Below are positions 49,732 through 59,494 of a stretch of DNA of 64,000 bases, one piece after another. The stretch is from Escherichia phage vB_EcoS_HZ_ZJUN2. The notes beneath the pieces were generated by a model, which saw nothing but the letters and a program-made list of their open reading frames with translations, made no database searches and was not told the DNA's origin. A program made the position numbers and the translations under genes. The DNA lies in the sequence record PP216084; one strand, 5' to 3'. The first letter of the stretch is position 1. The number at the start of each line of letters is the position of its first letter.

Positions 49732-49954
49732 ATATTCATAAATTAGGGAACAGCGAGCCGATTACGCTGAATGCAGAATCCCAACCGGAGCGCATTGAAT
49801 AGAGTCGGTGGGTTAGTTGTAAAACTAGTACACAGGGGGCGGCAATCCCGGTTAGTGGCTAGAACGTGTAAAATGAGGCGTCTGAAACCTCTCCCCTAAA
49901 CTCTTCTCTAATTTATAAATAGTGGGGTGTGGAAATCACTTATGTAGTAACACT

Positions 49955-50026
49955 GCCGATCTAGTATAAACGGTATTATCAAGCCGTAACTGGTGGAAGA
50001 TGTAGGTTCGAATCCTACGATCGGTA
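49955..50026 (+). other. tRNA-like element with aberrant anticodon arm (possible pseudo-tRNA)
   Basis: 7-bp acceptor pairing GCCGATC/GATCGGT and perfect T-arm GTAGG-TTCGAAT-CCTAC, but no 5-bp anticodon stem with U33 and no encoded CCA. Confidence 0.3.
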
Positions 50027-50527
50027 AGAACTGGATAACTGGTGCTTTTAACGTAAAAGCTTCCGAGGTTAGTTGCGCACTGCCTAAACCACGCGGTAGT
50101 TGGTTCCAGACTAACCAACCAGTCTGCTGAATAGTTTTATTACGATTTAACTATGTCCAGGCTAAAGAAGAACTTTAGAAGGTATTCTAGGTAGTGAAGT
50201 TTTTCCTCCATATCGGAGTAGTTTTTCAAGCTACCAACAAAGTGGGAAATGCTGACATGAGAGATGTCACTAATGGTGCACAATAGCACAGGTAATTCGC
50301 GATAACTCCTGTTGAGTAGCAGCAAAAGGCGGGAAGTCATGACCCCAAGCCTAACCGAGTCCTCAATATACCGCAGGACATAACCACTAAGTCACCCTGA
50401 CTTAAACTGGAAAATAATAGACGTTACTGTATTTTGTCTTGAAATACTTAATGAGTGAGACTTATGACTCTCCCGGTATCGTCTGTATTTTTAAGAGTTT
50501 TTACGAGAGTTCTTAAAAATACTTAAA

Positions 50528-52408: not shown

Positions 52409-52497
52409 GGAAGAATAGCATAACGGTATTGCAGCAGATTGCTAATCTGTCGGTTTGAAATATAGCCTTGTGGGTTCGATTCCCACTTCTTCCGCCA
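52409..52497 (+). tRNA. tRNA-Ser (anticodon GCT), long variable arm
   Basis: Acceptor GGAAGAA/TTCTTCC, anticodon loop TTGCTAA, 19-nt variable arm, T-loop TTCGATT, discriminator G, CCA. Confidence 0.7.
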
Positions 52498-52503
52498 AAT
52501 TCT

Positions 52504-52581
52504 GGTTCTCAAGCTCATATGGTATGAGCACCCAGCTCATAACTGGAAGGTACGTAGGTTCGAATCCTCGGGGAGCCACCA
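52504..52581 (+). tRNA. tRNA-Met-like (anticodon CAT)
   Basis: Acceptor GGTTCTC/GGGAGCC, D-stem GCTC/GAGC, anticodon loop CTCATAA, CCA; T-stem has only 3 clean pairs. Confidence 0.55.
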
Positions 52582-54511: not shown

Positions 54512-54586
54512 GCACCTTTAGCTGAGATGGATTAGCGCTTGCCTGAAGAGCTTGAAAGGTTGGATCGTTACCAACGGGGTGCACCA
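54512..54586 (+). tRNA. tRNA-Phe (anticodon GAA)
   Basis: Acceptor GCACCTT/GGGGTGC, D-stem GCTG/TAGC, anticodon loop CTGAAGA, CCA; anticodon stem has two U-U pairs, T-loop ATCGTTA is atypical. Confidence 0.55.
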
Positions 54587-54945: not shown

Positions 54946-55021
54946 CGACCGTTGGCTGAATGGCTTAGGCGAAGGATTGCAAATCCTTTTTATGTGAGTT
55001 CAAATCTCATGCGGTCGTCCA
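54946..55021 (+). tRNA. tRNA-Cys (anticodon GCA)
   Basis: Acceptor CGACCGT/GCGGTCG, anticodon stem AAGGA/TCCTT, loop TTGCAAA, T-arm GTGAG-TTCAAAT-CTCAT, CCA. Confidence 0.65.
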
Positions 55022-55173: not shown

Positions 55174-55259
55174 GGGTCGTTGGCTGAACGGTTTAAGCGC
55201 CGGACTGTTAATCCGTATCCGCAAGGATAAAGTAGGTTCAACTCCTACACGGCCCGCCA
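55174..55259 (+). tRNA. tRNA-Asn (anticodon GTT) with an unusually long variable arm
   Basis: Acceptor GGGTCGT/ACGGCCC, anticodon arm CGGA-CTGTTAA-TCCG, 15-nt variable stem-loop ATCC-GCAA-GGAT, T-arm GTAGG-TTCAACT-CCTAC, discriminator G, CCA. Confidence 0.6.
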
Positions 55260-55286: not shown

Positions 55287-55472
55287 ATGACAACTCGTGC
55301 AATTGCTCGACTAGAAGCTGATCGTGATAATATGATTAATAATATTAAGGTTCGTGGTAATATTATTAAGGCTCTGAAAGCTGAACTTCTTGAGGAACTT
55401 CAAGGTCAAGTAGAGCGTCGTGAAGCTCTAAAAGAGGTTGAGGAAGCTATCGAAAAACTCAAGGCTGAATAA
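55287..55472 (+). CDS. hypothetical coiled-coil protein
   Basis: 61-aa ORF with GAGGAAATAG RBS. Confidence 0.5.
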   Translation: MTTRAIARLEADRDNMINNIKVRGNIIKALKAELLEELQGQVERREALKEVEEAIEKLKAE

Positions 55473-55475
55473 ATT

Positions 55476-56057
55476 ATGCACGGAATATCCTTACCCATTC
55501 CAGGGTTTGAGGAGTACTTAGTAAGTTTGGATGGGTTAGTATTTAGTATCAAATCAAACAAAATACTAACCCCAATAACCAGTAATTACGGATACTTATC
55601 TATACGTCTCCATAAAAATGGTCAACAGAGAAATACCGGTGTACATAGGATTTTAGCATGTGCATTTAAGAAATTACCAAGTCTAGACTCTGAACTAGAA
55701 GTTGACCATATTAACACAGACATTACTTATTGGGGTCTTAATAACTTACAAGTGCTCACAAAAGAGCAGCATCTAGAAAAGACTTTAAAAGATAAAGGAT
55801 TTAGTAAACTAAACCATGATAATTGTTGTAAGGATTGTGGTAAAGCTATTTCTTTAAAAGCTGAAAAATGTCAGGAGTGCTCTTCACATAAACCAAAAGA
55901 TATCTCTATAACTAAAGAAATAATCGAGGTTACAGTAAGAGAGCTAGGCTGGTCAGGTGCAGGGAGAAAGTTAAGTTATTCAGATAATGGGTTGCGTAAA
56001 AGATACACTTCTTTAGGAGGCAATCCTAAAGAACTTAAAAAGTTAAAGGTACTATAG
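55476..56057 (+). CDS. HNH homing endonuclease
   Basis: …YGYLSIRL…HRILACAF…EVDHINTDITYWGLNNLQVLTKEQH; C-terminal ELGWSGAGRKLSYSDNGLRKRYTSL module. Confidence 0.7.
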   Translation: MHGISLPIPGFEEYLVSLDGLVFSIKSNKILTPITSNYGYLSIRLHKNGQQRNTGVHRILACAFKKLPSLDSELEVDHINTDITYWGLNNLQVLTKEQHLEKTLKDKGFSKLNHDNCCKDCGKAISLKAEKCQECSSHKPKDISITKEIIEVTVRELGWSGAGRKLSYSDNGLRKRYTSLGGNPKELKKLKVL

Positions 56058-59419: not shown

Positions 59420-59494
59420 GCTCCTAAAGCATTGTTGGCGATGCAGTTGCCTTGTAAGCATCTGAGCTGGGTTCGATTCCTAGTGGGAGCACCA
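59420..59494 (+). tRNA. tRNA-Thr (anticodon TGT)
   Basis: Acceptor GCTCCTA/TGGGAGC, D-stem GCAT/ATGC, anticodon loop CTTGTAA, T-arm CTGGG-TTCGATT-CCTAG, CCA. Confidence 0.6.

Follow-up and report, generated by a model that had tools for sequence, protein, structure and literature searches.

Class-II transfer RNAs are defined by a long variable region that folds into a stem-loop, and the isotypes listed as such in a review of non-canonical tRNAs are those of Ser, Leu and Tyr, plus tRNA-Sec, which is treated as class II (PMC7609411). The bacterial tRNA-Asn is a class-I molecule; in Escherichia coli, where it is encoded by asnT, asnU, asnV and asnW, it is 76 nt long and has a variable loop of 5 nt. 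This work deals with a tRNA-Asn gene of Escherichia phage vB_EcoS_HZ_ZJUN2, found in a 64,000-nt stretch of DNA (record PP216084) that is referred to here as the window. The encoded tRNA has 86 nt and a structured variable region of 15 nt. It is probably a functional elongator tRNA-Asn built on a class-II core of the Tyr type, and a member of a large phage-borne family of long-arm tRNA-Asn.

The identity elements of the enzymes concerned provide the frame for the comparison. Asparaginyl-tRNA synthetase (AsnRS) depends on G34, U35, U36 and the discriminator G73, and Asn identity can be transplanted into tRNA-Lys with the anticodon and G73 alone (PMC9976931). Ser identity is anticodon-independent and resides mainly in the variable arm, with G1-C72, G2-C71 and G73 as reinforcement; for the E. 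coli seryl-tRNA synthetase (SerRS), C2-G71 is an antideterminant, as G73 is for the leucyl and tyrosyl enzymes (PMC9976931). Long-arm tRNAs bearing class-I anticodons have been described as allo-tRNAs, which are found in bacteria and phages, can insert Ser and have an 8/4 or 9/3 acceptor/T organization (PMC5389517).

In the window, ARAGORN places a tRNA-Asn (gtt) exactly at 55174–55259 on the + strand, and the Rfam tRNA model (RF00005) folds the same interval as a cloverleaf scoring 54.7 bits (gathering score 29; E = 5e-9 over the window). The gene lies inside a cluster of 21 tRNA genes called by ARAGORN and is the sole tRNA-Asn of the phage. The tRNA and its parts are as follows:

55174–55259, + strand: tRNA-Asn(GUU), 86 nt, class-II-like, CCA encoded (ARAGORN; RF00005; about 32 phage records contain it with 100% identity, annotated as tRNA-Asn)
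55174–55180, + strand: acceptor 5' strand GGGTCGT, with G1-C72, G2-C71, G3-C70, U4.G69, C5-G68, G6-C67 and U7-A66 (sequence, parse)
55183–55198, + strand: D arm GCT(G)-AACGGTTT-(A)AGC, three Watson-Crick pairs plus G13.A22, a class-II-type core, with C11-G24 (parse)
55200–55216, + strand: anticodon arm, stem CCGGA/TCCGT, loop CTGTTAA, anticodon GTT at 55207–55209, A37 at 55210 (sequence, ARAGORN, covariance model, parse)
55217–55231, + strand: variable region, 15 nt, stem ATCC 55217–55220 / GGAT 55225–55228, GNRA tetraloop GCAA 55221–55224, unpaired AAA 55229–55231 (covariance-model insertion, covariation, minimum free energy (MFE) fold)
55232–55248, + strand: T arm GTAGG-TTCAACT-CCTAC (covariance model, parse, covariation)
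55249–55255, + strand: acceptor 3' strand ACGGCCC (sequence, parse)
55256, + strand: discriminator G73, an Asn identity determinant (sequence; identity rule from PMC9976931)
55257–55259, + strand: 3' CCA, encoded (sequence, ARAGORN)

The acceptor stem contains a single G-U pair and is followed by U8 and G9, G26 comes after the D arm, and the D and T loops have the canonical G18G19 and TTC elements. The anticodon stem of this allele has 4 bp because of a C27.U43 mismatch (55200/55216); other long-arm members have G.U, A-U or C-G at 27-43, and 4-bp anticodon stems are present in 14.9% of bacterial tRNA-Asn according to a 2026 survey (PMC13092985). With a 4-bp stem and a tetraloop, the variable region has the class-II architecture (at least 10 nt with a stem-loop) and not the loop of 4–5 nt that is typical of class I, although not a known determinant; the D stem is also of the class-II kind, with three Watson-Crick pairs and 13-22 unpaired as G13.A22. 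The sequence-only reading of this DNA had described the anticodon arm, a 15-nt hairpin region where Asn tRNAs have about 5 nt, and a G discriminator, all of them correctly according to the sequence parse, ARAGORN and RF00005. Its proposal of a class-II-like long arm on a tRNA with an Asn anticodon also holds, since the covariance model aligns all the arms and treats 12 nt (uccgcaaggaua) of the variable region as inserted, in agreement with the covariation described below. For the same reason, refolding into a normal short variable loop, the outcome which that reading had named as contradicting it, is excluded.

Selection has shaped the extra hairpin. The window tRNA was aligned without gaps, from the anticodon arm to the 3' end, with 33 distinct homologues (n = 34), all of them with a variable region of 15 nt. 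Compensatory double changes were found at all four hairpin pairs, and the inner three pairs are formed in 101 of 102 cells with three to five pair types each (e.g., UA 12, AU 11, GC 11). Over the 14 pairs of the anticodon stem, hairpin and T stem, 96.6% of the cells are paired, compared with 73% in column shuffles (0 of 500 reach the observed value) and 31–42% in slid registers; the covariation score is 0.616 versus 0.146 in shuffles. The hairpin is thus backed by covariation as strongly as the T stem, and purifying selection for its pairing acts on it. The single-sequence MFE fold retains the hairpin and indicates that U43 (55216) could pair with A55229, forming a fifth arm pair and leaving two unpaired nucleotides.

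Regarding its distribution, the long-arm tRNA-Asn is a large phage-borne family almost absent from cells. The phage of the window is T5-like, as the 601 bases around the gene are 97–98% identical to those of Salmonella phages S113 and bobsandoy and Escherichia phage JLBYU43 (Demerecviridae). By blastn, 597 phage records of GenBank match the 86-nt tRNA, and in 593 the match spans 80% of it or more; about 47 carry the window allele at 95% identity or more, while most T5-like phages have an 83-nt allele that is about 79–80% identical to it. Full-length homologues of 85–86 nt occur in Priunavirus and Novosibvirus (Demerecviridae), Jiaodavirus and Moonvirus (Straboviridae), and Phapecoctavirus (Stephanstirmvirinae), and nearly all of those in these genera are annotated as tRNA-Asn. 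In all the aligned phage homologues the variable region consists of a stem of 3–4 bp, a GNRA tetraloop and then three bases. A pattern in which the Asn anticodon arm precedes a 12–20-nt variable region was found in at least 120 viral contigs of IMG/VR, from 5-kb fragments to phages of more than 400 kb. Among the matches listed, ARAGORN and a structural parse yielded 91 distinct sequences of long-arm tRNA-Asn, the variable region being 11–20 nt long (mode 15 nt); the fractions of 91 given below for long-arm Asn refer to this set, and the figures for short-arm Asn and other isotypes to distinct tRNAs from the same loci. When variable regions of any length were scanned, 14 of 120 (12%) viral tRNA-Asn were long among the matches listed, and about 20% of those in tRNA arrays. 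In GenBank phages, the long-arm type (593 records) and a host-like class-I tRNA-Asn (531) are about equally common.

In cells, the same pattern was found in 37 stretches across 185,579 bacterial and archaeal species genomes (one per species). About 17 of them are real long-arm Asn genes, 11 of which lie in dense arrays of 7–36 tRNAs per 8 kb, an arrangement typical of mobile elements. By blastn, nothing like the window tRNA is present in 5,426 complete E. coli genomes, 5,425 of which contain the ordinary 76-nt tRNA-Asn. A cellular origin or a host copy is ruled out by these two counts. Some of the cellular matches deserve separate mention. Those in Saprospiraceae (a metagenome-assembled genome (MAG), L139 5469–5811, and also L129 and L149) are tandem 128-nt repeats and not long-arm tRNAs; the repeat unit comprises the 5' two-thirds of a tRNA-Asn plus an unrelated hairpin, and the array lies upstream of a normal 74-nt tRNA-Asn. 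These truncated copies may be stacked attachment-site remnants of integrative elements. Solitary long-arm tRNA-Asn genes of 83–87 nt, outside arrays, occur in two archaeal MAG contigs (L133 and L135), in Azoarcus sp. L1K30 (L163) and in L150 and L151; L133, L135 and L163 reach 60–63 bits with the Rfam model. They could be cellular genes, or else mis-binned viral or prophage DNA. A further long-arm tRNA-Asn, on a Bacilli MAG contig (L164, JBOFGC010000083.1), is 100% identical to that of the window at positions 8–43, C27.U43 included, and differs from it in the acceptor stem, the variable arm and the T-stem flanks. This block of identity points to a sharing of modules across distant phage pools.

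To establish which enzyme the family is suited for, its positions of interest can be set beside those of other phage tRNAs:

Position 73: long-arm Asn G 88/91; short-arm Asn G 85/91; Ser G 69, U 33 and A 10 of 113; Tyr A 64/64; Leu A 92/92
Pair 1-72: long-arm Asn U-A 57/91 (63%) and G-C 32/91; short-arm Asn U-A 74/91 (81%); Ser G-C 100/113; Tyr G-C 56/64
Pair 2-71: long-arm Asn G-C 39 and C-G 34; short-arm Asn C-G 44 and G-C 40; Ser G-C 108/113
Ser triad G1-C72/G2-C71/A3-U70: long-arm Asn 3/91; phage tRNA-Ser 88/113
Stem of the variable arm: long-arm Asn 3–4 bp (71/91); Ser 4–7 bp; Tyr 3–4 bp; Leu 3–5 bp
Unpaired 3' nucleotides of the arm: long-arm Asn 3–4 (74/91); Ser 0–1 (91/113); Tyr 3 (37/55); Leu 1–2
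Mismatch at 13-22: long-arm Asn 62%; short-arm Asn 13%; Ser 54%; Tyr 39%; Leu 99%

In addition, the arms of phage tRNA-Ser have at least 5 bp in 75% of cases, and a GNRA arm loop is found in 58% of long-arm Asn versus 7% of phage Tyr. In a fixed-position nearest-neighbour analysis, the acceptor stems of long-arm Asn are nearest to those of short-arm Asn (a size-matched best-hit share of 47%), while their D core is nearest, also with matched sizes, to that of other long-armed tRNAs. Within the G1-C72 subgroup of the family the 2-71 pair varies (G-C 18, A-U 6, U-A 6, C-G 2) and, therefore, G2-C71 is not under a Ser-like constraint. Judging from these comparisons, the long-arm tRNA-Asn combines the synthetase-facing parts of an Asn tRNA with a class-II core and an arm of the Tyr type, and the selection seen across the family agrees with Asn and not with Ser, Tyr or Leu.

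The window allele contains the complete AsnRS set, G34-U35-U36 and G73. It lacks U1-A72, a pair typical of bacterial tRNA-Asn and a determinant for GatCAB in the indirect pathway, and has G1-C72 in its place; U1-A72 is not needed where AsnRS exists, as in enterobacteria. With regard to Ser, G1-C72 and G2-C71 are present in this allele together with C11-G24, but the family does not conserve them (C-G at 2-71 in 34/91); A3-U70, found in 87% of the sampled phage tRNA-Ser, is replaced by G3-C70, and the arm is not of the Ser type, with 4 bp and three unpaired 3' nucleotides, or 5 bp and two if U43 pairs with A. The two canonical Ser tRNAs of the window (at 52409 and 57920) have arms of 19 nt and A3-U70. 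They also have G73, as the sequence-only reading had noticed when it took the G discriminator for a Ser cue; nevertheless, G73 is an AsnRS determinant, likewise present in E. coli tRNA-Asn and in 85 of the 91 short-arm phage tRNA-Asn, so the cue does not discriminate. Tyr identity, which relies on A73 and GUA with U35 critical, does not fit a tRNA with G73 and GUU, even though the tRNA-Tyr of the window has a 15-nt arm with the same geometry. By body similarity, the closest tRNA of the window is not Tyr (0.56) or Ser (0.52–0.58) but Cys (0.70):

54946–55021, + strand: tRNA-Cys(GCA), body closest to that of tRNA-Asn (0.70), same D-arm type (ARAGORN, parse)

Across 75 phage arrays, the co-resident tRNA closest to the long-arm Asn was Tyr in one and Ser in two; a recent duplication from the phage's own tRNA-Tyr or tRNA-Ser is not supported by either result.

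Compared with the described systems, the window tRNA shares with bacterial class-I tRNA-Asn the CUGUUAA loop, the lower anticodon stem GGA/UCC, A37, G73 and the 7/5 acceptor/T organization, and like it is presumably a substrate of AsnRS for AAC/AAU decoding. It differs from it in the structured arm, in the class-II-type D core (G13.A22, G9) and in starting with G1-C72/G2-C71/G3-C70 instead of the U1-A72/C2-G71/C3-G70 of E. coli. With class-II tRNA-Tyr it has in common an arm stem of 3–4 bp followed by about three unpaired 3' nucleotides, G34, U35, G1-C72 and a GGG-type acceptor start; unlike tRNA-Tyr, it has U36 (A36 in Tyr) and G73 (invariant A73 in Tyr), and its body is not particularly close to that of the resident Tyr, as mentioned above. 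The likeness to tRNA-Ser comprises the long arm with its GNRA cap, G73, G1-C72, G2-C71 and C11-G24; the differences are the shorter stem, the three unpaired 3' nucleotides instead of 0–1, the lack of A3-U70, and the Asn anticodon with the full AsnRS set. Its canonical 7/5 organization separates it from the allo-tRNAs, which it resembles as a long-arm tRNA with a class-I anticodon. The nev-tRNAs of nematodes are class-II tRNAs bearing "wrong" anticodons, and it is the body that decides how they are charged. In both nev- and allo-tRNAs the determinants that go with the anticodon are not read by its cognate synthetase, unlike in the family of the window tRNA, in which the AsnRS set is complete and conserved.

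Further information comes from the orthologue in Salmonella phage 5 (AJ604531), located in both phages between tRNA-Cys and an open reading frame (ORF) of the DUF7337 family. The two sequences show three differences in the 173 nt upstream of the gene and none in the 5' acceptor strand (GGGTCGT in both), compared with 16 differences at 59 interior positions, in the D arm, the upper anticodon stem and the variable arm (Fisher p = 3e-8), and two more in the T loop. Several of them are compensatory, for instance C28-G42 to U28-A42, and the acceptor stem, T stem, anticodon loop and G73-CCA are unchanged. Between the window allele and the common one, identity is 79% inside the tRNA versus about 98% in the flanks. 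The common allele has 83 nt, a 3-bp arm with a GAAA loop, and a 73-nt RNA3, while the window allele has 86 nt, a 4-bp arm with GCAA, and no RNA3. The latter element, annotated as "tRNA-like RNA with unknown functions" (AJ604531 6863–6935; L003 386–458), is cleanly missing at 55259/55260 of the window; RNA3 is not recognised as a tRNA by Rfam at E ≤ 0.1. The locus therefore exists as two discrete cassettes in otherwise near-identical genomes, with the same AsnRS-read parts and a different core. This arrangement fits a constraint on the parts that the synthetase probably reads together with freedom in the core, and the split between alleles fits either recombination with the allele of another phage or diversifying selection on the core. 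Two genes follow downstream:

55287–55472, + strand: 61-aa ORF of the DUF7337 family, directly downstream of tRNA-Asn
55476–56057, + strand: HNH homing endonuclease ORF, NUMOD4 (4e-5) and HNH_3 (0.0015, below the Pfam cutoff), 217 bp downstream of tRNA-Asn

A homing or HNH endonuclease is also annotated in close relatives of the phage, and this enzyme may drive the cassette-like exchange of alleles at the tRNA-Asn locus. A scan for promoters and terminators around the gene was uninformative: the counts were near those expected from shuffling, and the minus-strand "terminator" is the T arm itself.

The class architecture of phage tRNAs is fluid in general. In the viral loci considered (L008–L272), 70 distinct tRNA-Leu have short variable loops (5–9 nt) and retain A73, and among other class-I isotypes (Ile-UAU, Thr, Cys, Trp) 2–17% have long arms. 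The long arms of class-I isotypes co-occur modestly with long Asn (5.7% versus 2.4%, p = 0.007). These figures support the idea of a freely varying core. A 91–96-nt tRNA-Ile(UAU) is recurrent in the viral loci, which also contain long-armed Thr, Cys, Trp, Met and Gly tRNAs. Salmonella phage 5 has a long-arm tRNA-Thr(UGU) of 87 nt (L273 1936–2022, AJ604531), and its CUA derivative bears the annotation "effective amber suppressor"; the tRNA-Thr of the window (59420–59494) is an ordinary one of 75 nt, and long Thr tRNAs of the phage 5 type occur also in viral contigs L017 and L084. Elsewhere in the window, two tRNA-like genes at 52504–52578 (+) and 54512–54583 (+) were scored by Rfam (38.2 and 32.6 bits) and not called by ARAGORN. 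The anticodon of one is CAU and its T stem is bulged; that of the other is GAA (Phe), with two mismatched pairs in the anticodon stem and AUCGUUA as a non-canonical T loop. The gene at 49954–50027 (+), called "tRNA-Ser (act)" by ARAGORN, has 74 nt, a variable region of 3 nt, A73 and 39 bits with Rfam; it is not a Ser tRNA of class II, and the isotype assigned to it seems unreliable.

According to the explanation favoured here, the tRNA would be transcribed within the T5-type tRNA cluster, as its context suggests, and matured with its encoded CCA, and it folds as a cloverleaf with a short GNRA-capped hairpin in the variable region. The published identity rules predict that host AsnRS charges it through G34-U35-U36 and G73, largely ignoring the body, and that the charged tRNA decodes AAC/AAU as Asn. 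The arm would be an integral part of the class-II core, kept by selection, and not an identity switch. Speculatively, the indifference of AsnRS could leave the core free to vary, and a shape unlike that of the host could be useful against tRNA-binding host factors, for example defence nucleases. The orthologue offers some functional evidence: the annotation of AJ604531, made by the laboratory behind the sequencing of the T5-family tRNA region, states that a derivative of the phage 5 tRNA-Asn with a CUA anticodon is an amber suppressor, without naming the inserted amino acid. This shows that the class-II-shaped body of the orthologue is processed and works on the ribosome. For variable arms of T5-family tRNAs there is a precedent of a role in defence conflicts, outside the recognition by synthetases. 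The tRNA-Tyr of SP15, a T5-like phage, needs its longer variable loop to neutralise Retron-Eco7; PtuAB/Septu systems cut tRNA-Tyr in its variable loop, and T5-like phages counter them with tRNAs (PMC12673091; PMC13096335). For Asn there is no report of this kind: the SP15 tRNA-Asn, supplied in trans in E. coli, served only as the negative control in work on PrrC170, with no toxicity reported (PMC11555353), and Asn is not among the T5 tRNAs listed as cut by RorSlfn5. No link to PARIS, PrrC, Schlafen or colicins emerged from the corresponding papers, which are silent on the arm of tRNA-Asn. No description of a class-II tRNA-Asn, of its spread in phages or of its near-absence from cells was found in the open-access literature, older subscription papers on T5 tRNAs being beyond reach; the annotation as tRNA-Asn is itself long-standing, and the long arm may have been remarked on before.

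Several points weigh against this explanation. It is rather improbable, although not negligible, that SerRS charges the class-II body with G73 to a meaningful extent, so that some Ser is inserted at AAC/AAU, deliberately or because it is tolerated. Of the Ser set of E. coli, the window allele does hold a large part (G1-C72, G2-C71, C11-G24, G73 and an arm of 4–5 bp, the fifth pair depending on U43). The activity of the CUA derivative, moreover, means that an anticodon-independent enzyme other than AsnRS can charge the phage body. Class IIb synthetases approach the tRNA from the side of the variable region, as in AspRS-tRNA complexes, and a long arm might hinder AsnRS. No aminoacylation data on this tRNA-Asn or its homologues were found in the open-access literature searched. 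The interior divergence between alleles could be mere recombination with the allele of another phage, and the adaptive role of the arm is pure inference. To judge by titles cited in a review, a change of one nucleotide can make a Ser acceptor of a Leu or Tyr body (PMC9976931). In E. coli, early attempts at an amber suppressor based on tRNA-Asn failed, and active mutants selected later inserted Gln (PMC9976931). Amber suppression is the strongest reason to suspect a latent second identity (Ser or Gln), and Ser mischarging is for this reason kept as a rival. Nonetheless, insertion of Ser at AAC/AAU, which the sequence-only reading had raised, is not supported at the level of the family: the arm leaves 3–4 unpaired 3' nucleotides in 74/91 members, as in Tyr, versus 0–1 in 91/113 Ser; the acceptors are Asn-like; the Ser triad is present in 3/91 and A3-U70 is missing in the window; C2-G71, the antideterminant, occurs in 34/91, and 2-71 varies within the G1-C72 subgroup; and the AsnRS set is fully conserved. 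The lack of reported toxicity of the SP15 tRNA-Asn, whichever allele that phage carries, may go in the same direction. The structural part of that reading stands and its functional part is not supported, including the suggestion of a tRNA-derived element with another function, which disagrees with the complete Asn anticodon loop, G73 and CCA. Of the outcome that it had named as refuting it, homologues showing a common enlarged Asn tRNA charged with Asn alone, the first half holds: the enlarged Asn tRNA is common.

Such a non-decoding element, be it a decoy or sponge for nucleases that read Tyr-type arms (such as the PtuAB of Retron-Eco7/Septu) or some other regulatory RNA, is very unlikely. 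The Tyr-like arm, the cleavage of the tRNA-Tyr variable loop by PtuAB with tRNAs as the answer of T5-like phages, and the several tRNA-like stable RNAs of unknown function in the T5-type tRNA region would agree with it; but the anticodon loop, G73, CCA and the D- and T-loop elements are conserved, the phage has no other tRNA-Asn, the ribosome accepts the orthologue's CUA derivative, and nothing in the literature found ties tRNA-Asn to PtuAB. A decaying tRNA gene with an insertion, or an annotation artefact, is hardly credible in view of the covariance-model score, the covariation in the arm and stems and the conservation in hundreds of genomes; the C27.U43 and G13.A22 mismatches that could suggest decay correspond, respectively, to the 4-bp anticodon stems already documented in bacterial tRNA-Asn and to the 13-22 mismatches typical of class-II cores. 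Granted that the tRNA is a functional tRNA-Asn, a separate question is what the arm is for, and the answer to it is not to be added to the preceding alternatives. The arm might be a neutral legacy, needed only for folding, of a normal Asn tRNA that acquired its class-II core through a shift of the Tyr anticodon (GUA to GUU, with A73 to G) or by exchange of modules; this is a possible answer, although not the favoured one. The Tyr and Asn anticodons are one base apart and AsnRS needs only the anticodon and G73 (PMC9976931), the arm geometry equals that of phage Tyr, the D core is like that of other long-arm tRNAs and the acceptor like that of Asn, and class architecture is fluid, with the short-arm Leu, the long-arm class-I isotypes and the co-occurrence of the latter with long Asn. 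On the contrary, no recent derivation is visible, either in the phage arrays or in the window, where Cys is the nearest tRNA, and the long arm has been kept across very distant phage families, in about as many records as the host-like type, while being nearly absent from cells; this asymmetry between phages and cells suggests a phage-specific advantage and not drift. Possible, although with a rather low probability, is that the long-arm tRNA-Asn is a phage-specific class kept for its non-host shape in a tRNA-centred conflict, in which it would resist or decoy a host factor, or one with a deliberate dual Asn/Ser identity. In the case of conflict, a host nuclease or tRNA-binding factor could recognise the core or the variable region of the host tRNA-Asn, or arms of the Tyr type.

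As to its significance, Asn is a fifth isotype with class-II architecture, beyond the Ser, Leu, bacterial Tyr and Sec of the accepted list (PMC7609411), and it shows this architecture in a structurally conserved form, in hundreds of sequenced phages, including the T5 family, and hardly ever in cells. Calls of phage tRNA-Asn of 83–90 nt in genome annotation deserve to be accepted as real and not taken for errors. If the conflict or the dual-identity possibility were true, class II would extend beyond Ser, Leu, Tyr and Sec, with phages remodelling the cores of their tRNAs while the synthetase determinants remain fixed. Partial charging with Ser would make this tRNA a naturally occurring mistranslating one, and in a model phage. 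If it is charged with Asn alone, AsnRS would tolerate a radically different core and phages would be free to redesign tRNA bodies around the identity elements, which would be relevant to tRNA engineering and to the escape of phage tRNAs from tRNA-targeting immunity.

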